Source of the DNA: Chitinophagaceae bacterium
GTDB lineage: Bacteria; Bacteroidota; Bacteroidia; Chitinophagales; Chitinophagaceae
Reading direction: 5' to 3'
Length of the DNA stretch: 38,969 nt
NCBI GenBank assembly: GCA_044349815.1
Contig: JBIKQE010000001.1
Span: 1 to 38,969 of the forward strand
This document shows positions 10,519 to 36,514 of this stretch, piece after piece. Under the pieces are notes generated by a model, which made no database searches, was not told the DNA's origin, and worked only from the letters and a program-made list of their open reading frames with translations. Position numbers and translations under genes: made by a program. Every line of letters starts with the position of its first letter. The first letter of the stretch is position 1.

Positions 10519-10536
10519 GCCACTAAACGAACTTCT

Positions 10537-12573: not shown

Positions 12574-12632
12574 GGAGGCAAACTTTTTTACCCCCTCATA
12601 TCGGTCTATCTTTGCCCCGCTCAACCACGTTT

Positions 12633-14120
12633 ATGAACAAGAAAATTCAATCGGCCCTGATTTCGGTTTTTTATAAAGACGGATTAGATACGCTCGCACA
12701 AACCTTACACAAGCTCGGTGTTACTATTTATTCCACCGGGGGCACCCAACAATTCATCGAACAATTGGGTATTCCTTGCGTGGGTGTTGAAACAGTAACC
12801 GGTTATCCTTCTATTTTAGGTGGCCGTGTAAAAACCTTGCACCCTAAAATGTTTGGAGGCATTCTTGGTCGCCGGGCAAACGAACAAGATGTACAGGAAA
12901 TGGCGCAATACGATATTCCGGTACTCGATTTAGTGATTGTTGATTTGTATCCGTTCGAAGAAACCGTTGCGAATACGACCGACGAAAAACTCATCATTGA
13001 AAAAATAGATATCGGTGGTCCGTCTATGATTCGTGCTGCCGCTAAAAATTTTAGCGATGTGGTGGTACTCGCTTCCAAAAGCGATTATGCGGTATTGAAT
13101 CACATGCTTGTAACACAGCATGGCGAAACCACGGCAGAACAACGTAGGGCCTTTGCCGCCAAAGCCTTCGAGGTTGTGAAGCATTACGATATGGCCATTG
13201 CCGATTATTTCAATGCCGATACCACGGTGTTGCGTTACGGCGAAAACCCACACCAGCAAGCCCGATTCATTGGTAAGCTGAACGAATGGTTCACGCAATT
13301 AAACGGCAAAGAATTATCGTACAATAATTTAGTAGATGTTGATGCCGCCATGCAACTCATGCACGATTGCACCAACCATACCAACGCGGTATTTGCTATC
13401 ATCAAACACACCAATGTATGTGGTATCGCTGAACGAATTGGTGTTCATACGGCCTGGGAAGCGGCCTTGGCGGGCGATCCTGAAAGTGCCTTTGGCGGGG
13501 TGTTGGCCTGTAATCAACCCATCGATCGCTCAACCGCCGAAGCCATCAACGACATCTTTTTTGAAGTGTTGCTGGCACCCGCATTCAGTGCCGATGCCCT
13601 TGAATTATTAAAACAAAAAAAGAACCGCATTTTACTGGAAACAAAAACCATTGATTTACCAACGCAACAAGAAAAGTCGTTGTTGAATGGCCGTGTTATT
13701 CAAGATAACGACCACGGCACAGAAGCTACTTGGAACGAAGTGGGTGGCCGCGAAACCACCGATGCCGAAGCCGACGATTTGCGTTTTGCCAATATGGTGG
13801 CCAAACATTTAAAATCGAATGCCATTGCCTTGGTGAAACACAAGCAATTGATTGGTAAAGGCTGCGGACAAACATCGCGGATTGATGCTTTGCGTCAGTC
13901 GCTCGACAAAGCCCGACAGTTCGATTTTGACTTGGATGGTGCCGTGATGGCCTCCGATGCCTTCTTCCCCTTCGACGATTGTGTGCGTATGGGCCACGAA
14001 GCCGGCATCACTGCCTTTATTCAACCCGGTGGCAGTATTCGCGATAAAGACTCCATTCAATATTGTCAAGAACAAGGTCTCGCCATGGTAATTACCGGCA
14101 CCCGCCATTTTAAGCATTAA
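12633..14120 (+). CDS. purH: Bifunctional IMP cyclohydrolase / AICAR formyltransferase
   Basis: MNKKIQSALISVFYKDGL..STGGT..GGRVKTLHP..DLVIVDLYPFE..IDIGGPSMIRAAAKN..YGENPHQ. The ATG at 12633 is preferred to the track start at 12549, which overlaps comEC and adds 28 non-conserved residues. Confidence 0.9.
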   Translation: MNKKIQSALISVFYKDGLDTLAQTLHKLGVTIYSTGGTQQFIEQLGIPCVGVETVTGYPSILGGRVKTLHPKMFGGILGRRANEQDVQEMAQYDIPVLDLVIVDLYPFEETVANTTDEKLIIEKIDIGGPSMIRAAAKNFSDVVVLASKSDYAVLNHMLVTQHGETTAEQRRAFAAKAFEVVKHYDMAIADYFNADTTVLRYGENPHQQARFIGKLNEWFTQLNGKELSYNNLVDVDAAMQLMHDCTNHTNAVFAIIKHTNVCGIAERIGVHTAWEAALAGDPESAFGGVLACNQPIDRSTAEAINDIFFEVLLAPAFSADALELLKQKKNRILLETKTIDLPTQQEKSLLNGRVIQDNDHGTEATWNEVGGRETTDAEADDLRFANMVAKHLKSNAIALVKHKQLIGKGCGQTSRIDALRQSLDKARQFDFDLDGAVMASDAFFPFDDCVRMGHEAGITAFIQPGGSIRDKDSIQYCQEQGLAMVITGTRHFKH

Positions 14121-14200
14121 TTAAAAGTGCGTTAAAAAATGCCGAGCTCCCATACGTGATACGAAATCGTGTATATTTGATATTCTAAATTCTGTTTAAT

Positions 14201-14692
14201 ATGAAAAAAATACTGTTTGCTTTTTTGGGATTGATGTTGTCGTTCCAATTATCGGCCCAACAACAAGACTTGCCAAAAACAACCGTTCGCGATATCAACG
14301 GTAAACCCATAGCCTTCAACGAAACATTCGAAGCGGGTAAAGTAACACTCGTGAGCTTTTGGGCCACTTGGTGTATTCCATGCAAGCAAGAAATAAAAAA
14401 TATTAAAACCAAATTGGAAGGTTGGAAGAAAGAAGCCGACTTCAATTACATGACCATCTCCATCGACGATTCGCGCGCTACTGCGATGGTAAAAACGTAT
14501 GCTAAATCGCAAGGTTGGACCTTCCCGACGTTCCTCGATCCGAACAGTGATTTAAAACGTTCCCTCAATTTTCAGAACGTACCCTATACCATGATTGTAG
14601 ATAAGAATGGTAAAATTGTTTTCCAACATACCGGTTACGAAGAAGGCAGCGAAAACATGCTCTTCGAAAAAATTAAAGAGCTGAGTAAATAA
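14201..14692 (+). CDS. TlpA/ResA-like periplasmic thiol-disulfide oxidoreductase
   Basis: Signal peptide followed by VTLVSFWATWCIPCKQE (WCxxC thioredoxin fold) and NVPYTMIVDKNGKIV. Confidence 0.8.
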   Translation: MKKILFAFLGLMLSFQLSAQQQDLPKTTVRDINGKPIAFNETFEAGKVTLVSFWATWCIPCKQEIKNIKTKLEGWKKEADFNYMTISIDDSRATAMVKTYAKSQGWTFPTFLDPNSDLKRSLNFQNVPYTMIVDKNGKIVFQHTGYEEGSENMLFEKIKELSK

Positions 14693-14905: not shown

Positions 14906-15028
14906 GTAGTTTTATAGAACTAACTACAAATATGTTTTAATGGAAATGAGAGAGGGACATATTGATGTTATTGGGGGAGATATTTGGGGGATGGGTATCG
15001 CTTTGAAAGTGAATGGGTGTAATTTTGT

Positions 15029-15121
15029 TTAACGCTTAACGATATTTTTTAACTCTATTGCGCACTTAACGGTGATATGTTAAGGGGGAGTAGTTAAAGG
15101 TATAAGTGATTTGACGTTAAG
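15029..15121 (+). promoter_or_regulatory. Cluster of TTAAC(G) words upstream of the island's first gene, including the palindrome CTTAAC-N8-GTTAAG
   Basis: cttaacg at 15035-15041 and 15065-15071; the inverted copy cgttaag at 15115-15121; gttaag at 15079-15084, forming an inverted pair with 15065-15070. Confidence 0.3.
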
Positions 15122-15142
15122 CTCAAGAATATTAAATGGTTT

Positions 15143-16138
15143 ATGAAATACAGTTACTCAAAAACTATACAGGAACTTAAGGATCACGCATTAATACCTG
15201 TTGGTGATATTTACGAATTTGAATCCGCGAGAATTGCTCCGATTTACGAAAGATATTATCAGTTTTGCCAAGAAAATCTAGAAGAGAAATCAAATGAATA
15301 CAATATTCAACCATCAAGATTTTATTTTAGAAATAAATTCGGTATAAATGCTCAGGCAGGATATCAGAATGGTATTTATATTGTCGGAGTAAATATGTCT
15401 ACTATAGATTCTTTGTATTCACTCTTGCATGAAAGAAACGACATTTTTGAAGTAGATAAATGTTTATCGGAGTTATACGGCTCGTTAATTTCAGAATTTG
15501 ATGTTCCTGTTGGTCATTTGATGTTCCAACTATCGACATTGTTTATTTTCTATCATGAGAAGGCTCATTTAGGCCAATTTTCTGGAGAATCACATGAATG
15601 GTTAACTGAGGTTTTGAAAACGGAATATTCTGCCGAACGCCATGCATTAGAATTAGATGCTGATATTGATGCCGCACACTTCATCTGTTTTCATCTTTTG
15701 GAATATTTCAAAAAATTATCTCCACAAGAAAGAACTTCAGAGAATTTGGAAAAAACACTTTCAATTGGAATAGCTAGTATATTTTCTTATTTTTTAATAT
15801 ATTTTGAAAGAAGTGGTGATATATACTTTAATGAACATTCTCATCCTCATACTTTAGTAAGAATAAGTTATATACTTGACTGTATGATAAGAGTAGCTGA
15901 ACATAATCTTCCTGATGATATAACCATTAATTCAGTAAAAGTCCTCAATGAAAGTTTCAAAATTACCGATCAATATTACAAAAGGGTTAATGACTCTGAT
16001 TTGGTTAAAGATTTTATTAATCAGTTCAAAATTGAAGCCAACAAAATAACTGACTATGTAAATACACTCTTGGAATTTTCTAAGAGAATGCCGAATTTGA
16101 TCAAGAATAGATTCAGCCTGCCGCCAATAAAAGGCTAA
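15143..16138 (+). CDS. Island ORF A: 331-aa HExxH protein, a putative zinc metallopeptidase with ImmA/IrrE-like motif spacing
   Basis: HEKAH at residues 138-142 (nt 15554-15568), followed about 25 residues later by ERHALELDADIDAAHF. This resembles the HExxH...E..A(N/D)..A arrangement of ImmA/IrrE peptidases. No signal peptide or TM helix. Very AT-rich codon usage. Confidence 0.5.
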   Translation: MKYSYSKTIQELKDHALIPVGDIYEFESARIAPIYERYYQFCQENLEEKSNEYNIQPSRFYFRNKFGINAQAGYQNGIYIVGVNMSTIDSLYSLLHERNDIFEVDKCLSELYGSLISEFDVPVGHLMFQLSTLFIFYHEKAHLGQFSGESHEWLTEVLKTEYSAERHALELDADIDAAHFICFHLLEYFKKLSPQERTSENLEKTLSIGIASIFSYFLIYFERSGDIYFNEHSHPHTLVRISYILDCMIRVAEHNLPDDITINSVKVLNESFKITDQYYKRVNDSDLVKDFINQFKIEANKITDYVNTLLEFSKRMPNLIKNRFSLPPIKG

Positions 16139-16296
16139 TACGCAAGCGCGGCTGGATGTATTGGCTGATTTTTTTTCATTATTTAGTTTTGGGAATTAAG
16201 TTAAACTGATTATCTTTATTTTCATACCTGCGTTTGCCTGCAACTTTTATGCACAACAACTATATATATGCTAAATAAATTTAAATAACAAAAACA

Positions 16297-17169
16297 ATGC
16301 AAACTTTCTTGCCAATTAATAAATGCATTTATTGTGGTGAAACCAATAATTTAACTGATGAACATATTGTACCATTTAGTCTAAATGGCACATGGATACT
16401 TCCAAAATCTAGTTGTTTAGATTGCGCAAAAATCACTTCAGCATTTGAAGGAAGAGTTGCAAAAATGTTTGCTTCATTTAGACAATCTTCAAATTTGAAA
16501 ACAAGAAGGCCAAAAAAAAAGAAACAAACCATTTCATTAAGAGATGATAGATGTAATATTATAGAAATGCCAAATGAAGGAATGTGGGACATTATTCCAA
16601 CTTTTAAATTTAGTTTACCAGGTATATATAACAAAGATTGGAACTTATCAAAAAAATGGGAGGAAACAACTCTTGGCATTATGACTAATCATCCAAATGA
16701 AACAAAGTTGTCGCATTGGAAGAAATTTAGTACCAATACTTTTATCTATGAATCCTCATCATTTGATATTAACAGTTATGCTCTTATGCTAGCCAAAATT
16801 GGCCATTGTATTGCTGTTGGACATTATGGGTTTGACAATTTTGATCACTTTTTAACTCCTTTTATTTTAGGAAATGATAAAGTAAACTTCAGTTTAACAC
16901 TTGATTCCCCTAACCTAAATACCAAACCAAATAGTTTAATTTCAATAAATTTATCATATTTCGTAGGAAGCTTTAATGAAATATTACCTCCTAAATTATT
17001 CGATCACGAATACGGATTTGAGCTACAAAAAAGTGATATCCCTAATGTGCAATATTTGATATATTCTCGTGTTAGACTTTTTCCATTTGCTGGAGGACCT
17101 ACGGCATGTGTTGTTGTTGGAAAAGCAAATCAACAACAATATTTAAAGTGTCTTAATCATCAGAAATAA
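16297..17169 (+). CDS. Island ORF B: 290-aa protein with an N-terminal HNH/beta-beta-alpha-Me zinc-finger nuclease-like motif and an unrecognised C-terminal domain
   Basis: C10-x2-C13 ... D-E-H23-I-V-P ... C40-x2-C43 (KCIYCGETNNLTDEHIVPFSLNGTWILPKSSCLDCAK), then the basic patch KTRRPKKKKQ. I do not recognise the remaining ~200 residues. Confidence 0.5.
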   Translation: MQTFLPINKCIYCGETNNLTDEHIVPFSLNGTWILPKSSCLDCAKITSAFEGRVAKMFASFRQSSNLKTRRPKKKKQTISLRDDRCNIIEMPNEGMWDIIPTFKFSLPGIYNKDWNLSKKWEETTLGIMTNHPNETKLSHWKKFSTNTFIYESSSFDINSYALMLAKIGHCIAVGHYGFDNFDHFLTPFILGNDKVNFSLTLDSPNLNTKPNSLISINLSYFVGSFNEILPPKLFDHEYGFELQKSDIPNVQYLIYSRVRLFPFAGGPTACVVVGKANQQQYLKCLNHQK

Positions 17170-17349
17170 ACTAGCCTGCTTTATACGTAACATCCGGTTT
17201 TCGCCAATTGGCTAATGTGATTCCAAATGGTGTTGAAGCTGTTCAGTTGTTAACAGTTTGTCAATAAATTGCTTTGATTATTTCTCTGAAATGAAAATTC
17301 GTAATAAAATAATTGATTTTTAAATAAGTCTAGATTTTGATAAAAACCT

Positions 17350-17391
17350 TTACATTTGCAATCAAATTTTACATTTAAATTTATTACATTT
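17350..17391 (+). promoter_or_regulatory. Three direct TTACATTT repeats; the first forms a perfect TAnnTTTG -7 box (TACATTTG, 17351-17358)
   Basis: TTACATTT at 17350, 17369 and 17384, 29-70 nt upstream of the ORF C start codon. Confidence 0.35.
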
Positions 17392-17419
17392 ACAAAGGCG
17401 TCATAAAGAACCTCTTTTT

Positions 17420-17947
17420 ATGCTAGCAATAAATACATACAATTCTTTTGACAATAATTTGACCAATGCGAAAGCAGTTGTTGGTTTGGAGTTGCTATAC
17501 GAAAGTTTTAGAAAACAAGTCGGAAAGTTTTTTATACTAATGGTGGTTTGTTTAGTATGTCTACCTTTTTTGTTACTATTTGGTTTATGGTTACAAACCA
17601 AACGTAAGAGTTTTCAAAAACACATGAAAAGAGATGTTAAATCATTTAGAAATTATAGTGAATACCAAGAATTTAAAGAGTATTTATCAAAATTAGATAA
17701 CCTAATGCCCTCATTAAATAAGGTAAATAAATATAATCTTAAAAAGGTTCCATTTCCTTTTAAATATACTTTAACTCAAATGCAGAAAATGGCATCAACA
17801 ATTGTTACTTATAACGATTGGCAAAAAAGTAGGCTAAATAGTCTGAACGATGAACAATTTAAAAGCAATGGTAGTCAAGTATTCAAGCATATTTCAGAGA
17901 GAGAATTATGGAATAATAGGAACCAAGCTTACCAATATTGGTTTTAG
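17420..17947 (+). CDS. Island ORF C: 175-aa single-pass membrane protein of unknown function
   Basis: One strongly hydrophobic helix (FFILMVVCLVCLPFLLLFGLWL), followed by a basic stretch (KRKSFQKHMKRDVK) and a ~110-aa Lys/Asn-rich domain. No motif I recognise. Confidence 0.45.
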   Translation: MLAINTYNSFDNNLTNAKAVVGLELLYESFRKQVGKFFILMVVCLVCLPFLLLFGLWLQTKRKSFQKHMKRDVKSFRNYSEYQEFKEYLSKLDNLMPSLNKVNKYNLKKVPFPFKYTLTQMQKMASTIVTYNDWQKSRLNSLNDEQFKSNGSQVFKHISERELWNNRNQAYQYWF

Positions 17948-17950
17948 ATA

Positions 17951-18463
17951 ATGTTTATATCGTTCTACGTTTTTTCAAAACTAAATTTTGTTACAAAAAA
18001 AATTGGTGATGATGTTCTCATTGAACACACCTATGCTTTTAGAGGTAAAACAGGTAAAAGGTATATCGTTACCGTTGAACAATATGACTATTCAATACAT
18101 ATTATAAAATTTTGTTTACAAGAAAGAAAGATTTATTCAGATAGATTTAATCAATTGACACATCTCAATGAATGTAGTAGGGTTCTTACAACAATAGGTG
18201 AAATAATGAAACATGTTCTTAAGAAAAACCCATTTGCATCATTTGGTTTTGTTGGTACAAACTTACCTGTTGAGGAAAAAAATAATACAAAACGTTTTAA
18301 ACTATACAGAAGGGTGGTTAGTCAAATTATTTCTCCTGTTGCATTTGAGCATAAATATTCACAAAGGCATAGCGCATATTTACTTCTAAATAGGAATAAT
18401 CAAGAGATTGATTTATTGAATAAAGTAACTGTTATGTTTGAAAGAATTTACTTATTACAGTAA
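17951..18463 (+). CDS. Island ORF D: 170-aa soluble protein of unknown function, translationally coupled to ORF C
   Basis: It starts 3 nt after the ORF C stop codon. No TM helix or signal peptide and no motif I recognise. Same AT-rich composition. Confidence 0.45.
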   Translation: MFISFYVFSKLNFVTKKIGDDVLIEHTYAFRGKTGKRYIVTVEQYDYSIHIIKFCLQERKIYSDRFNQLTHLNECSRVLTTIGEIMKHVLKKNPFASFGFVGTNLPVEEKNNTKRFKLYRRVVSQIISPVAFEHKYSQRHSAYLLLNRNNQEIDLLNKVTVMFERIYLLQ

Positions 18464-18712
18464 TTTTTTTTTTAATTTAAGTTATTGTTTTCTCAAGTTT
18501 GGTTTTTCTATTATCTGGTGTTCCACATTCGGTGAAGTGAATTCGTTTAAAAGTGTTATGCTATTGAGTTTAGAATAACGTCTTGTTGTCTGTGTGCTTA
18601 TGCCCAATTTCAATTACAGGTACTTTAGTGCTCTGTGTAATTAAGTTTTCACAACATCGTCAATTTTCTATAGATAGTTGTGCTAACATCCTTTTAATCT
18701 AGCAAATCAAGT

Positions 18713-18971: not shown

Positions 18972-20246
18972 TTAAATGGTTTCGAGGCTGATGGTGTTTA
19001 CTTTGGTAGCGTCGAATGGGCGTGTTAGTTTGATGTAGTTGTCGGTATAGCCTTCCATGCTGCCGTCTTTTTGGGCGTGTTCGAAGAGGGTTGGGCGCGT
19101 TTCGCTGCGGTGTTCTTCGGTGAACAAGTTCATTTTCTTTTCCGATAAATCGCGGAGACGGGCATTGCGCATTTTGCGTTCGTGAACAGGCACTGCGCCG
19201 GGCATGCTGGCCGCCGGTGTGTTTTCGCGTTCCGAGTACGTGAATACGTGCAAGTAGGAAATGGGCAGTTGGTGGAGGAAATCGAAGGTGTCGTGAAAAT
19301 GCGCTTCGGTTTCGCCGGGGAAGCCCACAATCACATCGACACCAATGCAAGCGTGGGGCATTTTTTCTTTGATGAGGGCCACGCGTTCGGCATATAATTC
19401 GCGGCGATAACGACGGCGCATGGCGGCTAGCATTTCGTTGTTGCCGCTTTGCAAGGGCATATGAAAGTGCGGCATGAAACGCTTAGAAAGGCTGATATAT
19501 TCGATGAGTTCGGGGTGTAATAAATTAGGTTCGATGGAGGAAATGCGAAAGCGCGGCATGTGGCTTTGCGTTTCGAGCGCCTTCACTAATTCAAAAAAAT
19601 CTTCGTTGTGTTTGCGGTTGCCTTGATGTCCTTTGCCAAAATCGCCGAGGTTGACGCCGGTTAATACAATTTCTTGCACGCCCGATTGGTGGAGTTCGTG
19701 CACATTGTTGAGAACGCCTTGTACGGTATCGCTGCGGCTGTGTCCGCGAGCGAGGGGAATAGTGCAAAAGGTGCAGGAATAATCGCAACCGTCTTGTACT
19801 TTTAAAAAGGTGCGTGTTCGGTCGTTCATTGAAAAGGAGGCGTTGAAACCTTGCACCGATTCAATATCGCAGCTGTACACTTGGGCTTTGTTGCCGGGTT
19901 GAAATTGCTTGAGGTGTTCGGCAATATTGTATTTTTCGCCGGTGCCAATCACCATATCCACGCCGTCCATGTTGGCAATTTGGTCGGGTTTAAGTTGGGC
20001 GTAACAACCGGTAATAACCACGGTGGCATCCGGGTTTTGTCGTTTCACTTTTCTAATGAGTTGCCTGCATTCTTTATCGGCATTATCGGTTACCGAGCAG
20101 GTGTTGATTACATACACATCGGCGGGCTGTTGGAAATCGGTTTTTTCGTACCCTGCCGTTTCGAGTTGGCGCGATAGGGTGGAGGTTTCGGCGAAGTTTA
20201 ATTTACAACCGAGGGTATGAAACGCGATGGATTTGTTCGATGACAC
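18972..20246 (-). CDS. mtaB: Radical-SAM methylthiotransferase, MtaB-like (tRNA ms2t6A37)
   Basis: N-terminal UPF0004 domain (IAFHTLGCKLNFAETS, VINTCSVT), a radical-SAM CxxxCxxC motif (CDYSCTFCTIPLARG), and a length of about 420 aa. Confidence 0.75.
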   Translation of the reverse strand: MSSNKSIAFHTLGCKLNFAETSTLSRQLETAGYEKTDFQQPADVYVINTCSVTDNADKECRQLIRKVKRQNPDATVVITGCYAQLKPDQIANMDGVDMVIGTGEKYNIAEHLKQFQPGNKAQVYSCDIESVQGFNASFSMNDRTRTFLKVQDGCDYSCTFCTIPLARGHSRSDTVQGVLNNVHELHQSGVQEIVLTGVNLGDFGKGHQGNRKHNEDFFELVKALETQSHMPRFRISSIEPNLLHPELIEYISLSKRFMPHFHMPLQSGNNEMLAAMRRRYRRELYAERVALIKEKMPHACIGVDVIVGFPGETEAHFHDTFDFLHQLPISYLHVFTYSERENTPAASMPGAVPVHERKMRNARLRDLSEKKMNLFTEEHRSETRPTLFEHAQKDGSMEGYTDNYIKLTRPFDATKVNTISLETI

Positions 20247-20326: not shown

Positions 20327-21076
20327 TTAGTATAGGCTACCTTGGCGCATATTTTTTTGCCAGCGAATATCGAAGCCGATGCCGGTCATCACCATCCAAT
20401 TGCTTTGCGAAAAGCGTTTGCCATTCATGGGGATGTTGCGGTCGGTTACATATTCGTTGCGGAGGTGATTTACCCCTAAACGCCACATCAGCACTTCGTT
20501 GATACGGAAGGTGCCGTATAATTCCGTCATGATGGTACCATAGCTTTCGCCACCCGGAATTTGGCAGTTGAAGGCGTAAGGTTCGGTGTAATAACGGGTG
20601 CCGGGCGGAACGGGGTCGGTTTCGTAGGAGTGGAAATATCCTTCTTTACGGTCGCCGAAGTTCACGCCTCCAATGTCGGTAGTGAAAATGATATTCACGC
20701 CTTTCTTGACAAAGATTTTTACGGCGAGGTATGCATTAACAGTGTTGGTTTGAATATCCTTCATAAACATCGAGTCGGCTCCGCCGGGGTTAGCGGCACT
20801 TAATACGGCACTTGATGTAGTATAATCGCGGTCTTTCGAAAAGAATAAGTTGCCACGAACACCTGCACCAATGCTAATGGTTTGGCGTTTACGCCCAATG
20901 CCATGCATGTAATGAATGTTGGCGCCAGTGCCCCAATGGGGATTGCCATAATACCCGAAATTGCCGTAAACACCGGCTTCAGCCGTTCTTTTTTTGAGTG
21001 CTTTACGCATGTTTTGTGCCTGAGAGGGCAACCACAAGGCCAGGATGGCCACTACCATGAATAATTTCCTTAACAT
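20327..21076 (-). CDS. Secreted, probably outer-membrane beta-barrel protein of unknown function
   Basis: Signal peptide MLRKLFMVVAILALWLPSQAQ and alternating aromatic/Gly-rich beta-strand-like segments. No catalytic motif. Confidence 0.5.
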   Translation of the reverse strand: MLRKLFMVVAILALWLPSQAQNMRKALKKRTAEAGVYGNFGYYGNPHWGTGANIHYMHGIGRKRQTISIGAGVRGNLFFSKDRDYTTSSAVLSAANPGGADSMFMKDIQTNTVNAYLAVKIFVKKGVNIIFTTDIGGVNFGDRKEGYFHSYETDPVPPGTRYYTEPYAFNCQIPGGESYGTIMTELYGTFRINEVLMWRLGVNHLRNEYVTDRNIPMNGKRFSQSNWMVMTGIGFDIRWQKNMRQGSLY

Positions 21077-21259: not shown

Positions 21260-21772
21260 ATGAATGCATTTAAAATAATGGCTTGGGGACTTTGCATGGT
21301 ACTCAGCAGCTGTATTCAAGCCCAAAACAAAAAAACATCGGAAATGAAAACGGAACATCCTTATTACCAACCTGGCCGCACGGAGAAACTATCGGTATCG
21401 GATGCGGAATGGAAGAAGGCCTTGTCGCCAGAGCTCTACCGCATTGCGCGACAACAAGGTACCGAATATGCCTTTTCGGGTGAGTATTGGAATTTCTATC
21501 AACAAGGAGTTTATCATTGTGCTGCTTGCGGACAAGCCTTGTTTGAATCGGATGGTAAATTTGAAAGCTCGTGTGGGTGGCCCAGTTTTTTTAAGGCGGT
21601 GAACGATAAAGCTATTCGGTACATACCCGACCATTCGCATGGCATGGATAGAACCGAAGTTCGTTGCGGTTTATGCGATGCGCATTTGGGGCACATTTTT
21701 GATGATGGTCCGCCGCCTACCGGCAAACGCTATTGCATCAATTCAGTAGTGATTCAATTTGAAAAGAAATAA
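21260..21772 (+). CDS. msrB: Peptide-methionine (R)-S-oxide reductase with a lipoprotein signal
   Basis: CAACGQALF..CGWPSF..RTEVRCGLCDAHLGHIFDDGP. The N-terminus MVLSSC is a lipobox. Confidence 0.9.
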   Translation: MNAFKIMAWGLCMVLSSCIQAQNKKTSEMKTEHPYYQPGRTEKLSVSDAEWKKALSPELYRIARQQGTEYAFSGEYWNFYQQGVYHCAACGQALFESDGKFESSCGWPSFFKAVNDKAIRYIPDHSHGMDRTEVRCGLCDAHLGHIFDDGPPPTGKRYCINSVVIQFEKK

Positions 21773-21775
21773 ACA

Positions 21776-22441
21776 ATGGCACAATCTATTTTTTTAATAG
21801 CCTTGCAATGCATGTTAATGGCATGTTCGGGCGGAGAAGGTCAATTACAAAACTCTAAAGTTTACGATACGATGATACACGAAACTAGTCCCTTGGTTGG
21901 GAATATGCAAACCGATACAATCACCTTGGGCGCAGGTTGCTTTTGGTGTGTGGAAGCGCAATTGCAATTGTTGGAAGGCGTAGTGAGTGTGAAGTCGGGG
22001 TATGCCGGTGGTTCAGTTAAAAATCCTTCGTACCGTGAAGTGTGTACCGGTGCAACAGGGCATGCTGAAGTAGTGCAAGTGGTTTACAAGCCTGAGGTTT
22101 TATCGACCGATGCCTTGTTGGCAGCCTTTTGGCAATCGCACGATCCCACGCAATTGAATCGGCAGGGGAATGATGTAGGTACGCAATACCGTTCGGTTAT
22201 TTTTTATCATACCGATGCACAGCGGGTATTGGCGGAAGCATACATTAAGAAATTAAACGATGAAAAGGTGTACGATAAACCGGTGGTAACGCAAGTGCAA
22301 GCGATGCCGGTATTTTATGAAGCGGAAGACTATCATCAAAATTATTATCGTTTGAATAGCGAACAGGGCTATTGCCAATATGTAATTCAGCCCAAGTTGG
22401 AGAAGTTTAAAAAAGTGTTTAAAGACAAGTTGGTACATTAA
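21776..22441 (+). CDS. msrA: Peptide-methionine (S)-S-oxide reductase with a lipoprotein signal
   Basis: GAGCFWCVEA..GYAGG..NPSYREVCTG.TGHAEVVQV..DPTQLNRQGNDVGTQYRS. The N-terminus MLMACSG is a lipobox. Confidence 0.9.
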   Translation: MAQSIFLIALQCMLMACSGGEGQLQNSKVYDTMIHETSPLVGNMQTDTITLGAGCFWCVEAQLQLLEGVVSVKSGYAGGSVKNPSYREVCTGATGHAEVVQVVYKPEVLSTDALLAAFWQSHDPTQLNRQGNDVGTQYRSVIFYHTDAQRVLAEAYIKKLNDEKVYDKPVVTQVQAMPVFYEAEDYHQNYYRLNSEQGYCQYVIQPKLEKFKKVFKDKLVH

Positions 22442-22479
22442 TATTGTTCTTGCTTAGGGAAGTTCAATAACTTTGTGGT

Positions 22480-24591
22480 ATGAACACGCCGGTTGAAACA
22501 CACGTTGATGGAATGACCTGTGGGAATTGTGCGCTCACTATTACAAATTATTTATCGAAGGCGGGAATAAGCGATGCCGTTGCCAATCCGGTTACAGGAA
22601 AAGTAAGTTTCTCGATTGAAGATGCAACCCGTTTGGCCGAAATATATGCCGGTATTGAAAAGTTGGGGTATAAAGTAAAAAGGGCCGAAGGTGAAACTGC
22701 GTCGTCGTCTTTTTTTACGTTGCGACGCATGTGGTTGATATCGATGCTGTGTTGGTTGCCTTTGATGGGACATATGTTTTTTTCGTGGTCGGTGTTGCAC
22801 AATCCGATGGTGCAGTTCTTGTTGTGTTTGCCGGTTTATGTATTAGGAACGTGGCATTTTGGAAGAAGCGCATTGCGTTCGATTCGGAATGGCATTCCCA
22901 ATATGGATGTGTTGATTTTTATTGGCAGTACTGCGGCCTTTTTTTATAGTATTGCCGGTTGGATATTGTACCCCGACCATGTGCATCATTATTTATTTTT
23001 CGAAACCACAGCGTCTATCATTACGTTGATATTGACGGGTAATTTGTTGGAAGAAATTACCATGCGGCAAACGGGGGCTTCGATGACAGCCCTTTTGCAA
23101 TACCGCGAAGTAAAAGCCCGTATTGTATTTACCGATAGCATTGGTAAAGAAACCATACAAGAAGTTGATAATCAGTTTGTAAAGGTGAACGACATCTTGC
23201 AAGTGAATACCGGCGATCGGATTCCGGTGGATGGGGTTTTAGTACGCGGCGATGCTTTGGTAGATGAAAGTATGATGACGGGTGAAAGTTTACCCATCAC
23301 CAAACAGCTTGGCGATACATTGGTGGGAGGAACGCTCTTAACGGAGGGTGCTTTGCGTATGCAAGTGAGTGCGGTGGGTGAATCAACCGCTTTGTGGCGT
23401 ATTATTCAAATGGTGAATGAAGCCCAAGCGGCGAAGTCGCCCCTGCAACGATTAGCCGATAAAATATCGGCCATTTTTGTGCCCGTGGTTATTGGCATTG
23501 CCTTGTTGACTTTTGTGCTTTCTTTCATGGTAGGGCATCTGCCGATACAGGAAAGCATTATGCGTGCCGTGGCGGTATTGGTAGTTGCTTGTCCTTGCGC
23601 TATGGGTTTGGCCACACCGGCAGCCGTCATGGTAGGCATGGGGCGTGCGGCTCGAATGGGGATATTGATGAAAGGGGGCGATGTGTTGCAAAAGTGTGGC
23701 GATATTCGCACGGTGGTATTCGATAAAACGGGTACACTCACAACAGGCGATTTAGAAATAGCAGATTTTTATACGGAATTACCCGAGGCCGTTTTTAAAG
23801 AGATTGTAAGCACCCTTGAAAGTCATTCGTCGCACCCCATTGCGAAGGCCTTAACCAAGGCATGGCCCGAGCAAGCGCGTATTGATTGGCAATCGGTACA
23901 AGAAAAAAAAGGGATTGGTATGGTGGGTGTGAGTGCTGAAGGTATTCGTTGGCAAATTGGTTCGTACCGTTGTTTGCCTTCTGCCATTCCCGAAGAGCAA
24001 CGCCATGATATTTATGTGTTACGTATGGGTGAACAAGTAGGTTGGATCGATTTAAAAGATGCCTTGCGGCCTGATGTGCCTTCGCTTGTTCAAGGCTTAT
24101 TGGCCAAGGGTATGAAGGTGGTGATGTTGAGTGGCGACAGGGCAACTAAATGCGAACAGGTAGCTGCGGAGGCTGGAATAAGTTTAGTTCATAGCGATTG
24201 TTTGCCGGAAGATAAACTGCGAATTTTAAAAACATATATGAACGAACAACCCGTTGCCATGGTGGGCGATGGCATAAACGATGCACCCGCGTTGGCCACG
24301 GCATCGGTTGGTATTTCGTTGAGCGATGCAACGCAAATTGCGATGCAACAAGCCGGGGTTGTTTTAATCAATAATCAAATTAGCACCTTGCCCTTGGCGC
24401 TGTCGCTAGGGCATCATACCTATATTACCATTCGTCAGAATTTGTTTTGGGCTTTTTTTTACAATGTAATTTCTATACCGGTGGCGGCCTTGGGAGGCTT
24501 AACGCCGGGTTGGGCGGCGGCTATTATGGGACTAAGCGATGTTATTCTAATTGCTAATTCCATTCGCTTGCGGTATAAAAAGCTGTCTTGA
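22480..24591 (+). CDS. Heavy-metal (Cu+-type) translocating P1B-type ATPase
   Basis: An HMA domain (GMTCGNCA), the CPC transport motif (VACPCAMGLATP), the phosphorylation site DKTGTLT, and the hinge VGDGINDAPAL. Confidence 0.9.
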   Translation: MNTPVETHVDGMTCGNCALTITNYLSKAGISDAVANPVTGKVSFSIEDATRLAEIYAGIEKLGYKVKRAEGETASSSFFTLRRMWLISMLCWLPLMGHMFFSWSVLHNPMVQFLLCLPVYVLGTWHFGRSALRSIRNGIPNMDVLIFIGSTAAFFYSIAGWILYPDHVHHYLFFETTASIITLILTGNLLEEITMRQTGASMTALLQYREVKARIVFTDSIGKETIQEVDNQFVKVNDILQVNTGDRIPVDGVLVRGDALVDESMMTGESLPITKQLGDTLVGGTLLTEGALRMQVSAVGESTALWRIIQMVNEAQAAKSPLQRLADKISAIFVPVVIGIALLTFVLSFMVGHLPIQESIMRAVAVLVVACPCAMGLATPAAVMVGMGRAARMGILMKGGDVLQKCGDIRTVVFDKTGTLTTGDLEIADFYTELPEAVFKEIVSTLESHSSHPIAKALTKAWPEQARIDWQSVQEKKGIGMVGVSAEGIRWQIGSYRCLPSAIPEEQRHDIYVLRMGEQVGWIDLKDALRPDVPSLVQGLLAKGMKVVMLSGDRATKCEQVAAEAGISLVHSDCLPEDKLRILKTYMNEQPVAMVGDGINDAPALATASVGISLSDATQIAMQQAGVVLINNQISTLPLALSLGHHTYITIRQNLFWAFFYNVISIPVAALGGLTPGWAAAIMGLSDVILIANSIRLRYKKLS

Positions 24592-24658
24592 ATCAAGTGT
24601 TTTATTGATTGAATTGGTCTATTTTTGCCACATCTTTCAAAGGTTAAAGACAATAATT

Positions 24659-25249
24659 ATGAATTTACAAATGCGTATTTTATGTATGATGGTGCTGGTA
24701 ATGAGCACATCGCTATGGGCATCGGCCCAAAAGAAAACCACCCTTAAAAAAGAAAAGGTGTACAAGCACACCCTCGCATTTCATCCGTTGCATGTAAATG
24801 CCGATAATTTTATTGGAGTGGGTTTTAGTTATGAGCGTGCTGTTAATGCCAATTTCGGCATTAAAATTCCCATGATGGTTTCTTTGAATCAGCCCTATGT
24901 TAACTTAGGGGTTTCGGCCAAATTTTATCCCCGCAAAAATAGTAACGATGCCGTTTCGTATGCTATTGCGCCAACCTTATATGCGGGCAAGGGCCAAGAT
25001 CGTAATCAAATTTTTACGTTCGATCCTGTTACAGGGCAATCGGTGTTGACCATTGAAAAAACACCCCGTACGCAAATTGGTTTCTTGTTGAATCATTCGT
25101 TGAATGTGCATGTTGCCGAACAAGTTTATTTAGGCTTAGATGGGGGCATTGGAATCAATTACTACGATAATAAAGCCTTTCGCGATAATACTAACACGAA
25201 TCTTTCGTTCGCTGCCCAATTTCACATGGCCATTGGGTATCGATTTTAA
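24659..25249 (+). CDS. Small outer-membrane beta-barrel-like protein
   Basis: The ATG at 24659 gives the signal peptide MNLQMRILCMMVLVMSTSLWASAQ. The C-terminus ends HMAIGYRF, with the terminal Phe typical of OMPs. The track start at 24551 overlaps the ATPase gene. Confidence 0.55.
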   Translation: MNLQMRILCMMVLVMSTSLWASAQKKTTLKKEKVYKHTLAFHPLHVNADNFIGVGFSYERAVNANFGIKIPMMVSLNQPYVNLGVSAKFYPRKNSNDAVSYAIAPTLYAGKGQDRNQIFTFDPVTGQSVLTIEKTPRTQIGFLLNHSLNVHVAEQVYLGLDGGIGINYYDNKAFRDNTNTNLSFAAQFHMAIGYRF

Positions 25250-32528: not shown

Positions 32529-32623
32529 GGTATTTGTCCTTGAATTGTCAATTATTACCCCAAAAAAATAGTTCTGTGTTTATTCATTGTGTAAATTACA
32601 CACACTCAACTAGTTCTATTGCC

Positions 32624-33412
32624 ATGAATCGATTTCAATCCTTGCGCTTGTCGGCTTGTTTGCTGATAGGATGCACAGCCGCCTTTTTAGTATTAAGTTC
32701 AACCGACAATGGTGGTACAGGCGTGAACAACGCTGCTGCCAATGGCACCGCATGCAACCCTTGCCATGGCAATGTTTCAAATGCCAATACCACCATTACG
32801 TTTTCGGGTGTCCCTATTGGGTCGTATACACCAGGCACCACGTATCCGGTTACCCTTACCATCAGCAACCCATTCATGCCCAAATGTGGCTTTAGTTTGT
32901 ATGTAACGGGCGGCACCCTTTCGGGGAACCCTACAGGAACCACCCTTACTCCGTTATCGTTCAATCAGATTCGCCACAATACCCCCTTAACGATGACGAG
33001 TGGCGTGTATACCTGCAATTTTAATTGGATAGCCCCTGCGGCCGGAGGAACAGTAACGGTGAAGGTTGTAGCGAATGCAGTTAACGACAATGGCATCAAC
33101 GACGCCGGCGATCAGTGGAACACGGCAACATTTACCCTCCCGCAAGCACCCAATACAATCAATAATTGGCAAGCCGAAACCGTTTCGGTTTATCCTAATC
33201 CGGCTTCATCGATTTTGATGTTAGATACCAAAAATGGGGCCAGCATCAGTGGGGTGTTTGTGCAAACAATTGCCGGACAAGTTTTACAAGTACCTGTAGA
33301 TAATCATCAAGGCACCTTGCGTGTTGATGTCAATGCCTTGGCTAATGGGTATTATCAAATTGCATATTACCAGAACGGTCATTTTCGCCAAACCGCCTTT
33401 ATTAAAAAATAA
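32624..33412 (+). CDS. Paralogue P1: secreted CxxCH-motif domain + T9SS C-terminal sorting domain
   Basis: The ATG at 32624 gives a signal peptide. CNPCH lies at nt 32753-32767. The conserved core reads F.W.AP..GG.VT..V..NAVN.N...D.GDQWN, and the C-terminal domain reads VSVYPNPASS..GYYQIAYYQNGHFRQTAFIKK. Confidence 0.7.
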   Translation: MNRFQSLRLSACLLIGCTAAFLVLSSTDNGGTGVNNAAANGTACNPCHGNVSNANTTITFSGVPIGSYTPGTTYPVTLTISNPFMPKCGFSLYVTGGTLSGNPTGTTLTPLSFNQIRHNTPLTMTSGVYTCNFNWIAPAAGGTVTVKVVANAVNDNGINDAGDQWNTATFTLPQAPNTINNWQAETVSVYPNPASSILMLDTKNGASISGVFVQTIAGQVLQVPVDNHQGTLRVDVNALANGYYQIAYYQNGHFRQTAFIKK

Positions 33413-33495
33413 TTTTTGTTTTTTCAATACCCTATGTATTAAAAAACTTGATATATATAAAAAAAAATGTATTTTAGTGTGCTAAAACAAAAGCT

Positions 33496-34272
33496 ATGAA
33501 GCGAATTATTACTATAAGTATGTTTGCCTTTTCGGGGATGCTCGCCATTATTTCATTGAGTTCGTCTAAAACAGCCTCTACCGGTGTTATGGGGCAAGCC
33601 TCACAAAATCAAGGTTGCGGATCGTGCCACGGAAACAGTGCCAGCGCCGCCACCGTTATAAATGTTACCGGTATTCCGGCCGCAGGTTATACGCCTGGTA
33701 CAATGTATCCGGTAACCTTAACCATCACCAATAATAATAGCATGATGGGTGCCGGTTTTGATTTGTTTTTTACGGCCGGGGCTATTTCAGGGGCTCCTGC
33801 CGGCACCATGACGATGATGGCCAATAAAGAATTGCACCATATACAACGCTTTCCAATGACCTCGGGTGTATGTACCATCAATTTTAATTGGACTGCTCCC
33901 GCGGCAGGTGGATTGGTTACTTTAACGGTAGCTGGTAATGCGGTAAATGGCAACGATCAAAACTCAGGCGATCAGTGGAACAAATCGATCTTCACCTATA
34001 ATGCCGCGCCTAATTCAGTAACCGATGTAGCTACCGAAACTATTTCGGTTTATCCGAATCCGGCTTCTACGTCAATCACGTTAGATTCAAAAAATCAAGC
34101 GCCTATAACGGGTGTTGTAATCAGCAATTTATCGGGACAGCGTTTCGATATGCCTGTATTGAATCAGCAAGGTAAATTAAATATAGAGGTAGCTTCGTTG
34201 GCAAGCGGTTTCTATCAAATCAGTTATTATCAACAGGGTATGGTTCACCGTACTTCGTTCGTTAAGAAATAA
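33496..34272 (+). CDS. Paralogue P2: secreted CxxCH-motif domain + T9SS C-terminal sorting domain
   Basis: Signal peptide, CGSCH at nt 33616-33630, the same core as P1 (NFNWTAPAAGGLVTLTVAGNAVNGNDQNSGDQWN), and the C-terminal domain ISVYPNPAST..GFYQISYYQQGMVHRTSFVKK. Confidence 0.7.
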   Translation: MKRIITISMFAFSGMLAIISLSSSKTASTGVMGQASQNQGCGSCHGNSASAATVINVTGIPAAGYTPGTMYPVTLTITNNNSMMGAGFDLFFTAGAISGAPAGTMTMMANKELHHIQRFPMTSGVCTINFNWTAPAAGGLVTLTVAGNAVNGNDQNSGDQWNKSIFTYNAAPNSVTDVATETISVYPNPASTSITLDSKNQAPITGVVISNLSGQRFDMPVLNQQGKLNIEVASLASGFYQISYYQQGMVHRTSFVKK

Positions 34273-34290
34273 GTTTCTGTTTGTGTGTTA

Positions 34291-34323
34291 AAAAGGGTCG
34301 CCAGATATTGGCGACCCTTTTTT
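34291..34323 (+). terminator. Rho-independent terminator after P2
   Basis: aaagggtcgcc-agatatt-ggcgacccttt followed by tttt. Confidence 0.7.
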
Positions 34324-34364
34324 ATGGCATGTGTTGTACTTTAGTGTTTTAATTCGTTTTGGCT

Positions 34365-35429
34365 ATGATGGTAAAAATGCCCTTATCGATTTCCTTAGCA
34401 ATAGCCTCTGTACTGGTGGTATTGTTTTTTTCATCGAGCAACAGTGGGGTTACAGGTAAAAGCACATCCGGTTGTGGGGGTGGCAATTGCCATCAACCCG
34501 ATACAGCAACAAACATGACCATTACAGGGCTTCCACCAAACGGCTATGTGCAAGGCCAAACGTATGCGCTCCAATTGATGGTTAGCAACCTGCAAAAGCA
34601 AGGTGCCGGCTTTAATATGACAGTTAATGGAGGTAGTTTAACCGCTTCGGTGGGTTCACAAGTAAACGGGTTGCAAGAATTATATCATACAAGCACCAAG
34701 GCCATGGTGGCAGGAACGGCTACATGGTCGTTTAACTGGATCGCGCCAAGCACCGGTTTTTCGCCTGTAGTTTTTTTTATAGCCGGCAATGCCGTAAACA
34801 TGAACAACAACCCACAAATCGATGCGTTCGATACCGATCAAGTTTCAGTGAGTGCCGCCGTAACGAGTGCAGTGCCAACTATAAACTCGGTGAATGTAAG
34901 TGGCATTACACCCAACAATGCCACCATCAATGCCGTGGTGAATGCCAACAACAGCACCACATCGTGCAGCATCGAATATGGTACAACCGTAGCGTATGGG
35001 AATACAGCCGCAATGGCACCAAGCTCGTTTGGGGGTGTTGCGAACACGGCGGTATCAGCTTCGTTAACGGGCTTATTGCCGAGCACCAATTATCATTACC
35101 GCTTGAAAGCAAGTAATGCCAACGGCACAGTGTACAGCAACGACGCCGTGTTTATTACCTACCCATCGAGTGTGGAGGAAGCAAGCATCAACAAAGCCCA
35201 TTTTTTTCCAAATCCTTGTACAGACTTCCTAACGTATGTTGCCAAGAACCCAAACAGCATGGTGCAATTAAACGTTGTGAATGCCCTTGGACAAGTTCAA
35301 CACCTGCCAATCATCTACTTGGGCCAAGGCCGTTATCAAGTACAAACTGCGCATTTGCCTCCCGGTGTTTATAGCCTCAAAGCACAAAGCGCTCAACAAA
35401 ACGAATTTGCATTATTTTTGAAACAATAA
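34365..35429 (+). CDS. Paralogue P3: secreted Cx4CH-motif domain + FN3-like domain + T9SS C-terminal sorting domain
   Basis: CGGGNCH at nt 34473-34493. The homologous core reads WSFNWIAPSTGFSPVVFFIAGNAVN. The inserted FN3-like module reads ..SCSIEYGTTVAYGN..LTGLLPSTNYHYRLKASNANGTVYS, and the C-terminal domain reads FFPNPCTD..GVYSLKAQ. The ATG at 34365 is preferred to the TTG at 34359. Confidence 0.7.
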   Translation: MMVKMPLSISLAIASVLVVLFFSSSNSGVTGKSTSGCGGGNCHQPDTATNMTITGLPPNGYVQGQTYALQLMVSNLQKQGAGFNMTVNGGSLTASVGSQVNGLQELYHTSTKAMVAGTATWSFNWIAPSTGFSPVVFFIAGNAVNMNNNPQIDAFDTDQVSVSAAVTSAVPTINSVNVSGITPNNATINAVVNANNSTTSCSIEYGTTVAYGNTAAMAPSSFGGVANTAVSASLTGLLPSTNYHYRLKASNANGTVYSNDAVFITYPSSVEEASINKAHFFPNPCTDFLTYVAKNPNSMVQLNVVNALGQVQHLPIIYLGQGRYQVQTAHLPPGVYSLKAQSAQQNEFALFLKQ

Positions 35430-35437
35430 GTTTTATT

Positions 35438-36514
35438 ATGAAATTATTTTTTACGTTTAGCCGACACACACCGGTTTATTTAAGTGTAGCCTTATTGCTT
35501 GCTGCCGTTTTATTTTCGTCGAATCAAATTGGCGTTTCGGGCAAAAGCATAGCCGGATGCGGTGGCGGAGGATGCCACACGTATAGCATCAATACCACCA
35601 TGAGTATGACGGGTATACCTGCCAATGGTTATGCTAATGGACAAACTTACAATATGTTTTTAACCGTTAGTAACAATGCTAAATTCAAAGCCGGTTTTAA
35701 TATGTCGGTAAGTACGGGCACCTTAGGGGCCGGTGCGGGAATGTCGTTGGTGTCGCCTACCGAATTAAAACACACCGCCCCCTTATTAATGAACAACGGC
35801 AATGCCATATGGTCGTTCACGTGGACGGCCCCGGCCTCGGGCACAGCACCCGTTACTTTCTATGTAGCCGGTAATGCGGTCGATACATCGGGAACCTCCT
35901 CGGGCGATGCTTTCAATACCGCTCAATTCAATTATACCGCAGAGCTATTAATTTCAGTGCCTATCATTGCGAATGTTATTACAACCGGTGTTACCGACAC
36001 CAGTTTCACAGCTACAGCCGATGTGAATCCGGGCAATGCGGCCACCGCCCCTTACATTGAATATGGCCCAACAACGAGTTATGGAAATACCACAGGTATG
36101 TCGCCCGCTATTTTAAACGGAGCCACTCCTTTGCCAACCAATGTTACCATCACGGGCTTAACACCGAGCGGTTCCTACCATTATCGAATTAAAGCTACTA
36201 ACTCGAACGGCACCGTATACAGTCAAGATAAATTAGTGGTACTCACCTCAACACCCAATGCAATTAATACCATCAACATCAATGCCGTTCGCCTCTATCC
36301 CAATCCGGTACACGATGTATTGTATTGCGACGGTTTATTGAACGAACAAATAATAAACATTCAAGTATACAATTCCTTGGGGGTATTAATGCCCACACCG
36401 TTATATACCAACAAACCCAATAGCTTGCAAGTAAGTGCCTTAGTACCGGGTAAATACATCTTGCACCTACAAACAAAAAAAGGCATGTATAAAACATCCT
36501 TTGTAAAATGGTAA
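35438..36514 (+). CDS. Paralogue P4: secreted Cx4CH-motif domain + FN3-like domain + T9SS C-terminal sorting domain
   Basis: CGGGGCH at nt 35558-35578. The core reads WSFTWTAPASGTAPVTFYVAGNAVD, the FN3-like module reads YIEYGPTTSYGN..ITGLTPSGSYHYRIKATNSNGTVYS, and the C-terminal domain reads VRLYPNPVHD..GKYILHLQTKKGMYKTSFVKW. It starts 8 nt after the P3 stop codon. Confidence 0.7.
   Translation: MKLFFTFSRHTPVYLSVALLLAAVLFSSNQIGVSGKSIAGCGGGGCHTYSINTTMSMTGIPANGYANGQTYNMFLTVSNNAKFKAGFNMSVSTGTLGAGAGMSLVSPTELKHTAPLLMNNGNAIWSFTWTAPASGTAPVTFYVAGNAVDTSGTSSGDAFNTAQFNYTAELLISVPIIANVITTGVTDTSFTATADVNPGNAATAPYIEYGPTTSYGNTTGMSPAILNGATPLPTNVTITGLTPSGSYHYRIKATNSNGTVYSQDKLVVLTSTPNAINTININAVRLYPNPVHDVLYCDGLLNEQIINIQVYNSLGVLMPTPLYTNKPNSLQVSALVPGKYILHLQTKKGMYKTSFVKW

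Follow-up and report, generated by a model that had tools for sequence, protein, structure and literature searches.

Four tandem choice-of-anchor V surface proteins of a Chitinophagaceae bacterium and the relationship of their family to Reeler domains

We analysed a stretch of 38,969 nucleotides (nt) from a Chitinophagaceae bacterium (hereafter the window, on which all positions are counted) and focused on four open reading frames (ORFs) that the ORF listing places head to tail on the plus strand at 32624-36514. Each encodes an exported protein whose N-terminal domain carries two closely spaced Cys residues followed by a His. The four genes are typical members of choice-of-anchor V, an already catalogued family that has functional annotation for no member. 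Sequence profiles combined with the predicted fold place this family as the prokaryotic branch, bacterial and archaeal, of the Reeler superfamily. An earlier note on this DNA, made without database searches, had likened the motif to the attachment site of a covalently bound haem. The motif most probably does not serve to attach c-type haem, because the spacing of its two Cys varies freely among close relatives. We lean towards the reading that the proteins are surface binding modules in which the Cys pair forms a short disulfide loop and the loop positions the neighbouring His.

Domain identity and predicted fold

The NCBIfam model for choice-of-anchor V (NF041895; 150 positions, curated cut-off 42 bits) matched all four N-terminal domains at 92-106 bits (E 3e-26 to 1e-30) over model positions ~4-149, and the relatives bear the NCBI name 'choice-of-anchor V domain-containing protein'. 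Full-length identity to gene 1, taken as the reference, ranged from 28 to 47% for genes 2-4; over the N-terminal domain alone, with gene 4 as the reference, the other paralogues were 35-44% identical. The ORFs, the alignment and the one shared model therefore agree with the earlier description of a tandem array of four same-strand paralogues with a common domain of ~150 residues. The sequence blocks listed in that description were recovered as AGF/CGF, (E/Q)(L/I)xH, FxWxAP, (G/A)NAV(N/D) and D(A/Q)(F/W)(N/D), with the exception of the Cys-x-x-Cys-His that all four proteins were said to share. CxxCH is found only in genes 1 and 2; genes 3 and 4 have Cx4CH, and of the Cys/His residues just the second Cys and the His fall in one alignment column in all four proteins. 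The same description did not include an Fn3-like domain that is present in genes 3 and 4.

The family is very large. At E <= 1e-3 a profile of the four domains collected 6231 clusters (representatives at 50% identity), of which 1454 remained at E <= 1e-10, with relatives in Bacteroidota, Acidobacteriota, Myxococcota, Proteobacteria and archaea of the Poseidoniaceae.

Structure prediction with AlphaFold2 (AF2) gave a nine-strand beta sandwich for the N-terminal domain of gene 2 alone (predicted local distance difference test, pLDDT, 92.1; predicted template modelling score, pTM, 0.88) and a similarly confident model of the whole mature protein (pLDDT 92.5). The best geometric match of the domain model in the Protein Data Bank (PDB) by Foldseek was the reeler domain of human F-spondin (2zou_A; E 4e-5, template modelling (TM) score 0.51/0.58, root-mean-square deviation 4.3 A, 20% identity), and no cytochrome was found among the top 50 Foldseek matches of this model. 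The whole two-domain model retrieved only generic tandem Ig-like matches (RbmA, transglutaminase, Fabs). Sequence comparison pointed in the same direction as the domain model. When a 39-sequence family profile was compared with PDB sequences, three Spondin-1 reeler entries were at the top (E 4.5e-5), and the alignment shared the blocks Y.PG.TY, GF and W.AP..G.V. The Pfam Reeler model (PF02014, gathering score 21 bits) was matched above its threshold by the relatives P0268, P0289, P0276 and P0336 (35-41 bits, profile positions 18-123), while the four window proteins gave no PF02014 match at E <= 1.

An hhalign comparison of the family with Reelers from vertebrate ferric-chelate reductase 1 (FRRS1) and 'defense proteins' returned a probability of 92.9% (E 3.7e-7). 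It paired the bacterial column of His112 (residue numbers such as His112, Met118 and Tyr71 are those of gene 4) with the His of vertebrate SAVSH, and no alignment was obtained between the bacterial and vertebrate N-terminal arms. The vertebrate Reeler query was an approximate sequence, scoring 129 bits on Pfam Reeler, that was used solely to fetch real database sequences. Trying the choice-of-anchor and Reeler models had been suggested from the sequence beforehand, and both choices were apt, the first by NF041895 and the second by the Foldseek match to 2zou_A, the Spondin-1 profile match and the PF02014 matches of relatives.

The vertebrate sequences have features of their own. An invariant Reeler N-terminal arm, Y-x-x-G-x-V-x-x-x-C-x-x-M-x-P-x-H, is present in P0371, P0374, P0378, P0379 and P0385 (annotated as ferric-chelate reductase 1 or 'putative defense protein'), and 6/7 vertebrate Reeler sequences contain a strand of the form (L/T)L(T/S)C...SAVSHTS.

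The Cys/His motif and its candidate roles

Residue conservation was counted in 124 aligned sequences and Cys spacing in 365 full-length relatives. None of the 365 lacked either Cys or the His that follows them, and the same held for each full-length protein among the 124. His112, the second conserved His, was found in 116 of the 124 sequences and was replaced by Gln in 7, so that the conserved second His of the earlier note stands as near-invariant and not as invariant. That note had also treated loss of the motif residues in wider homologues as evidence against its proposal; they are kept. Tyr71, Gly86, Phe87, Gly94, Trp129, Ala131, Pro132, Asn146, Ala147, Asn149 and Asp157 were near-invariant in addition, whereas Met118, invariant in the four paralogues, occurred in only 46/124 across the wider family. 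The motif pair were the only cysteines in 173/365 relatives, which leaves each of the two no partner there but the other or a cofactor.

The gap between the two Cys was far less constant in length. One residue separated them in 78 relatives, two in 163, three in 3, four in 110, five in 9, six in 1 and nine in 1, and the intervening residues were mainly Gly, Ser and Asn. On a neighbour-joining tree of 368 sequences, calculated from the domain without the motif columns, at least 73 changes of spacing were required (a minimum count), compared to 169 when the states were shuffled as a control. Spacing differed even between orthologues of 93% (four versus two residues), 86% (four versus five), 84% (four versus one) and 81% (two versus one) pairwise identity. 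The archaeal members P0102 and the gene at 4884-5501 of locus L041, from a Poseidoniaceae metagenome-assembled genome (MAG), have CVCH, with one residue between the Cys.

The four proteins are built for export to the cell surface. All have signal sequences with a positively charged and then a hydrophobic segment and, as read by eye from the translations, no twin-arginine motif. A type A C-terminal sorting domain (CTD) of the T9SS (type IX secretion system) is present in all four, each passing the cut-off of at least one of PF18962 (27 bits) and TIGR04183 (23 bits). Gene 1 is below the cut-off for TIGR04183 and gene 3, narrowly, for PF18962 (Table 1). These matches confirm the signal peptide and T9SS sorting domain that had been read from the sequence of each protein; no T9SS core genes were found in the window. 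Long relatives place the domain at the N-terminus, followed by Fn3/PhoD_N-like repeats, SprB repeats or GEVED and then a T9SS CTD, and contained no redox or enzyme domains. Other members end in different anchors, namely a C-terminal transmembrane helix (Poseidoniaceae, L041), a dockerin (P0307) or a resemblance to the MYXO-CTERM family (NF041894), which fits the name 'choice of anchor'.

We propose that Sec would carry the proteins over the inner membrane, that folding would take place in the periplasm and that exit would be via the T9SS, after which the CTD would be removed and the protein released or attached to the cell surface. The N-terminal domain would then serve, at the distal end of the protein, as a module for binding or adhesion without enzymatic activity. 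In its N-terminal arm the two Cys would close a very short, Gly/Ser-rich disulfide loop whose length would be free to vary from 1 to 9 residues; any spacing can close such a loop, which explains the lability of the spacing. The loop would fix the invariant His after the second Cys beside His112 of the ELxH strand. Asn146, Asn149 and Asp157 (GNAVN...GD) are predicted to share with His112 that end of the sandwich at which the N-terminal arm enters strand 1, and this His/Asn/Asp cluster may provide one polar site for a ligand or metal ion. The four paralogues are old duplicates (28-47% identical over full length) and probably present differing binding surfaces on one scaffold.

Several points weigh against this proposal. 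It is the strand topology of the model, together with analogy to F-spondin, that suggests the disulfide bond, a close approach of the two His and the clustering of Asn and Asp. A Cys-x-Cys disulfide is an 11-membered ring, strained and uncommon, and would be needed in 21% of relatives. We know of no binding partner for any choice-of-anchor V member, and literature searches on the bacterial family (choice-of-anchor, bacterial Reeler, MXAN_6652, T9SS-secreted cytochromes) found nothing. An invariant Cys-His dipeptide with a second His also matches the appearance of a metal or haem site. Almost any exported protein with CXXCH receives haem from the System I (Ccm) maturation machinery (PMC4158909). 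Two of the window proteins, exported with a canonical CxxCH, are of this substrate type.

It is possible, although we regard it as doubtful, that Cys-Xn-Cys-His and the strand His form a real cofactor site (haem c or Cu/Fe), displayed on the surface by at least 6000 protein clusters of Bacteroidota, Acidobacteriota, Myxococcota and Poseidoniales and homologous to an unrecognised site in the Reelers of eukaryotic ferric-chelate reductases (C-x-x-M-x-P-x-H ... SAVSH). In the form of this idea that survives best, a Cys2His2-type (or Cys/His/His) site at the apex of the sandwich would bind Cu, Zn or Fe, and the domains would be surface metal-binding, metal-sequestering or metallochaperone-like modules, resembling the putative site in eukaryotic ferric/cupric reductase Reelers. 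The family invariants, exactly two Cys and one His together with one near-invariant His, are suited to such a site, and each of the spacings Cys-x-Cys, CxxC and Cx4C is often seen in metal chelation. Chelate geometry, however, usually fixes the spacing of ligands, which here is labile between near-identical orthologues, and closely spaced Cys pairs of exported proteins are as a rule found oxidised, as a disulfide. His112 gives way to Gln in some members and its position is occupied by Glu in F-spondin. The Sec-type signals without a twin-arginine motif would fit uptake of a cofactor after export and not its insertion in the cytoplasm. The vertebrate FRRS1 and defense-protein Reelers have S- and N-donors in their invariant C-x-x-M-x-P-x-H arm in addition to the aligned strand His, but this arm could not be aligned with the bacterial one. 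The array itself has no link to metal-homeostasis genes, a P-type ATPase gene (22480-24591) being 8 kb away with unrelated genes between. The vertebrate proteins act on extracellular Fe(III), and the role of the Reeler domain in ferric-chelate reductases is described as 'not known' (PMC10691727). This connection with ferric reductases lends a metal site some appeal. Taken together, we consider such a site unlikely, although it is the main alternative to our proposal.

Less probable still is a purely structural role, in which the domain would be a surface-coat or spacer unit, its Cys, His, Asn and Asp residues would serve solely to keep the fold stable (through the disulfide and perhaps a Ca2+ site), and the proteins would be abundant components of a T9SS-displayed layer with no specific ligand. 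The proteins are small, simple and often multi-copy, their genomic context is not conserved, most of the other invariants (Tyr71, Phe87, Trp129, Ala-Pro) look like core residues, and the GNAVN...GD loop may resemble the Ca2+-binding loops of Ig-like adhesin domains. Such a role sits poorly with the constant N-terminal position of the domain, distal on long stalks in relatives as is typical of functional tip domains, with a strict Cys-His invariance across Bacteria and Archaea that exceeds the usual needs of fold upkeep, and with the persistence of the strand His into vertebrate Reelers. Thioester or isopeptide adhesin chemistry was rejected as the conserved Gln or Lys partner is absent.

The haem proposal of the earlier note, spelled out further, would make the proteins surface-exported mono-haem c-type cytochromes, to which System II attaches haem at the Cys pair in the periplasm, with the motif His as proximal and His112 as distal ligand (bis-His), the holo-protein being exported by the T9SS for extracellular redox or iron chemistry. 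The conservation of both Cys and the His, the near-invariance of His112, and the location of the motif, 15-20 residues into the mature form of a Sec-exported protein, are all consistent with this. Canonical CxxCH is present in the 163 relatives with two intervening residues, genes 1 and 2 included, and GCGSCH is locally like class I cytochrome c sites, for example those of a c555 trimer (E 8e-4 as the sum for its three repeats). Natural Cx3CH and Cx4CH haem sites exist, and E. coli Ccm reportedly tolerates n=2-6 in CXnCH (Allen et al. 2009, Biochem J 419:177). The CxCH of 78 relatives, about one fifth, is a different matter, as we know of no precedent for CxCH as a natural haem c site.

The lability of the spacing argues against haem: orthologous cytochromes keep their Cys spacing, whereas here at least 73 changes are needed and orthologues of 81-93% identity differ. 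A c-type cytochrome would have a conserved CXXCH or a fixed variant of it; genes 3 and 4 have Cx4CH, and across the family the spacing is 1-6 or 9. It would also share family or fold similarity beyond the motif, and neither TIGR01904, PDB sequences nor Foldseek gave any. TIGR01904 was the only cytochrome model matched, by gene 2 alone, at 15.3 bits against a cut-off of 27 and over 20 residues, and the PDB cytochrome matches span only ~20 residues with individual E values of ~26. Fold and sequence homology lead to Reeler, a non-redox extracellular module. A known non-redox adhesin or glycan-binding fold was an outcome that the earlier note had set against its own proposal, and the domain maps to the F-spondin reeler.

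Other observations agree. Gln replaces His112 in 7/124 sequences, and no fusions to redox domains occurred in the relatives examined. In the window, neither a cytochrome gene nor a ccs gene is close to the array, and among the ORFs scanned with Pfam there is no ccsA, ccsB or resB-like gene; the two other loci for which gene tables were available show no conserved neighbourhood. The strand His is kept in vertebrate secreted Reelers, and we know of no haem c lyase or machinery in the eukaryotic secretory pathway. A lone CxxCH is moreover a poor predictor and in most cases misleads; of 4410 archaeal proteins with a single motif, 4347 were classed as false positives (PMC4429474). With CxxCH in two of four proteins and under half of the relatives, labile spacing, a Reeler fold and an adhesin-like architecture, the covalent mono-haem assignment is not supported, and we judge it improbable. 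Met118 was rejected as a distal ligand on its distribution in the family, and the idea that CxCH marks a Rieske-like or Fe-S site was discarded, because the Cys number just two and the signal peptides are Sec-type without a twin-arginine motif.

The array and its genomic surroundings

The components of the array are listed in Table 1. Genes 3 and 4 share an extra insert of ~100 residues that has no counterpart in genes 1 and 2; it is Fn3-like, with its best match in either protein under the Pfam cut-off. The gene 1 ORF opens at a TTG 90 nt 5' of the ATG used here (32534-32623), and the gene 1 signal peptide holds the lipobox-like sequence 'LLIGC' (32657-32674), which genes 2-4 do not have.

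Table 1 Coordinates and profile matches of the four-gene array. All features are on the plus strand; domain coordinates marked ~ are approximate, and motifs were read from translations with a regex scan.
Feature	Coordinates	Residues	Description	Profile matches
Gene 1	32624..33412	262 aa from ATG	ORF opens at TTG 32534; signal peptide at N-terminus
Gene 1 choice-of-anchor V	~32687-33133	22-170		NF041895 92.2 bits
Gene 1 motif	32753..32767	Cys44-His48	CNPCH, canonical CxxCH
Gene 1 T9SS CTD	~33188-33409	189-262		TIGR04183 20.3 bits; PF18962 32.1 bits
Gene 2	33496..34272	258 aa	signal peptide at N-terminus
Gene 2 choice-of-anchor V	~33544-33987	17-164		NF041895 101.1 bits
Gene 2 motif	33616..33630	Cys41-His45	CGSCH, canonical CxxCH
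Gene 2 T9SS CTD	~34048-34269	185-258		TIGR04183 33.3 bits; PF18962 32.2 bits
Gene 3	34359..35429	356 aa	signal peptide at N-terminus
Gene 3 choice-of-anchor V	~34413-34841	19-161		NF041895 99.6 bits
Gene 3 motif	34473..34493	Cys39-His45	CGGGNCH, Cx4CH (also from alignment)
Gene 3 Fn3-like	~34911-35141	185-261		Pur_ac_phosph_N E 4.1e-5; fn3 E 1.1e-3
Gene 3 T9SS CTD	~35205-35426	283-356		TIGR04183 25.0 bits; PF18962 26.2 bits
Gene 4	35438..36514	358 aa	start 8 nt past gene 3 stop; signal peptide at N-terminus
Gene 4 choice-of-anchor V	~35489-35929	18-164		NF041895 106.4 bits
Gene 4 motif	35558..35578	Cys41-His47	CGGGGCH, Cx4CH (also from alignment)
Gene 4 second conserved His	35771-35773	His112	from family alignment
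Gene 4 Fn3-like	~35978-36217	181-260		fn3 E 6.8e-5
Gene 4 T9SS CTD	~36293-36511	286-358		TIGR04183 36.7 bits; PF18962 33.2 bits

The array is flanked by housekeeping genes: aroA, aroB, an S-adenosylmethionine (SAM) hydrolase-like gene, DUF1573, tatC, moaA, DUF4286, HU and a TylF-like methyltransferase. The closest relative is a Chitinophagaceae MAG (locus L003) in which the gene 4 orthologue is 74% identical and the synteny is the same, a Big_5/DUF2141 lipoprotein gene and moaA being followed by genes like 2, 3 and 4. Since this locus has only these three, gene 1 is a lineage-specific extra duplicate of the gene 2 type. Two or three same-strand copies within 10 kb were found in 14/82 loci; the four copies here are at the high end of the range and the same in kind as the other arrays. 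A promoter and terminator scan found 16 elements where 14.3 were expected, which is background, and relied on a sigma-70 consensus unsuitable for Bacteroidota.

Elsewhere in the window, msrB and msrA followed by the gene for the heavy-metal P-type ATPase, which has an HMA domain, occupy 21260-24591, ~8 kb upstream of the array; aro genes and tatC separate the ATPase from the array and no functional link is evident. Another T9SS cargo gene (7502-9559; DUF7619, SdrD_B-like and Por_Secre_tail) precedes a block of HU-CCDC81-like, ComEC, PurH and Redoxin genes (7502-14692 with the cargo gene). In a further Chitinophagaceae MAG (L001, 7187-14088), that block follows a choice-of-anchor V gene (P0057) and a 246-aa ORF without annotation, so that different T9SS cargo genes occupy one syntenic slot. 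A GldB-like gene is nearby in the L001 locus.

A low-GC island at 15000-18700 (GC 0.29-0.35 versus ~0.44 elsewhere), flanked by genes for AhpC/Redoxin (14201-14692) and a MiaB-like radical SAM protein (18972-20246, minus strand), was probably acquired horizontally. Its plus-strand ORFs (15143-16138, 16297-17169, 17420-17947 and 17951-18463) had no Pfam match except a sub-threshold HNH_5 (E 8.8e-5), and the island gave a weak PADLOC match to 'Lit' (E 0.005). Two other ORFs, at 20327-21076 (minus strand, 249 aa) and 24551-25249 (plus strand, 232 aa), had no Pfam or PADLOC match, and the latter overlaps the end of the ATPase gene by ~40 nt.

Significance and comparison with known systems

The locus is a routine example of a catalogued surface-protein family, and its interest beyond the window lies in the placement of choice-of-anchor V as the prokaryotic Reeler branch. 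The hallmark of the family is C-X(1-9)-C-H with a second His and not CxxCH, so that motif-based cytochrome screens take in ~45% of the family; members picked up in this way are probably false positives. The second His is common to the family and to vertebrate ferric-reductase Reelers. If a metal or haem were bound, there would be a testable function for a very large family and for the eukaryotic Reeler domain. Reeler would in that case be an ancient extracellular redox or metal module, and the window proteins the first T9SS-exported cofactor carriers of such a kind.

Compared to the family model NF041895, the window proteins show no material difference: they score across the whole model, and the domain is N-terminal with a C-terminal sorting signal behind it, as in the family. 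They are not members of the MXAN_6652 family (NF041894), against which they score 35-60 bits compared to an equivalog cut-off of 200, and they have a T9SS CTD in place of the MYXO-CTERM anchor of that family. The monohaem c cytochromes, among them cytochrome f, a beta-sandwich protein that has CxxCH at its N-terminus, are alike in being exported, in having Cys-Xn-Cys-His near the mature N-terminus and a candidate distal His, and in the canonical CxxCH of genes 1 and 2. They are unlike in the variable Cys spacing of the family, CxCH included, and the sequence and fold match ends at the motif. With fibrillar adhesins and SprB-type T9SS proteins, the long relatives share a tip domain, a repeat stalk and a C-terminal anchor. 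Genes 3 and 4 hold one Fn3-like module and all four proteins end in a type A T9SS CTD, but at 258-358 aa the window proteins are short, and none has more than one stalk module.

A further comparison is with Reeler domains (PF02014), represented by F-spondin (2zou, 2zot, 3coo), FRRS1 and the insect and fish 'defense proteins'. The predicted fold is the same beta sandwich at the TM scores given above, the blocks Y.PG.TY, GF and F.W.AP..G.V.F are common to both, and both are extracellular N-terminal modules with an N-terminal arm that contains Cys and His. In FRRS1-type Reelers the SAVSH His aligns with the strand His of the window family, whereas F-spondin has Glu at the position equivalent to His112. 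The arms themselves differ, being C-x-x-M-x-P-x-H in vertebrates and C-X(1-9)-C-H in the bacterial family. In the F-spondin structure the arm Cys pairs with a Cys of the strand ahead of the position that corresponds to the His; a strand partner of this type is missing in many prokaryotic relatives, including the 173 without any Cys beyond the motif pair. The GNAVN...GD block, finally, is a feature of the prokaryotic branch only, and distinguishes it from the other Reelers.

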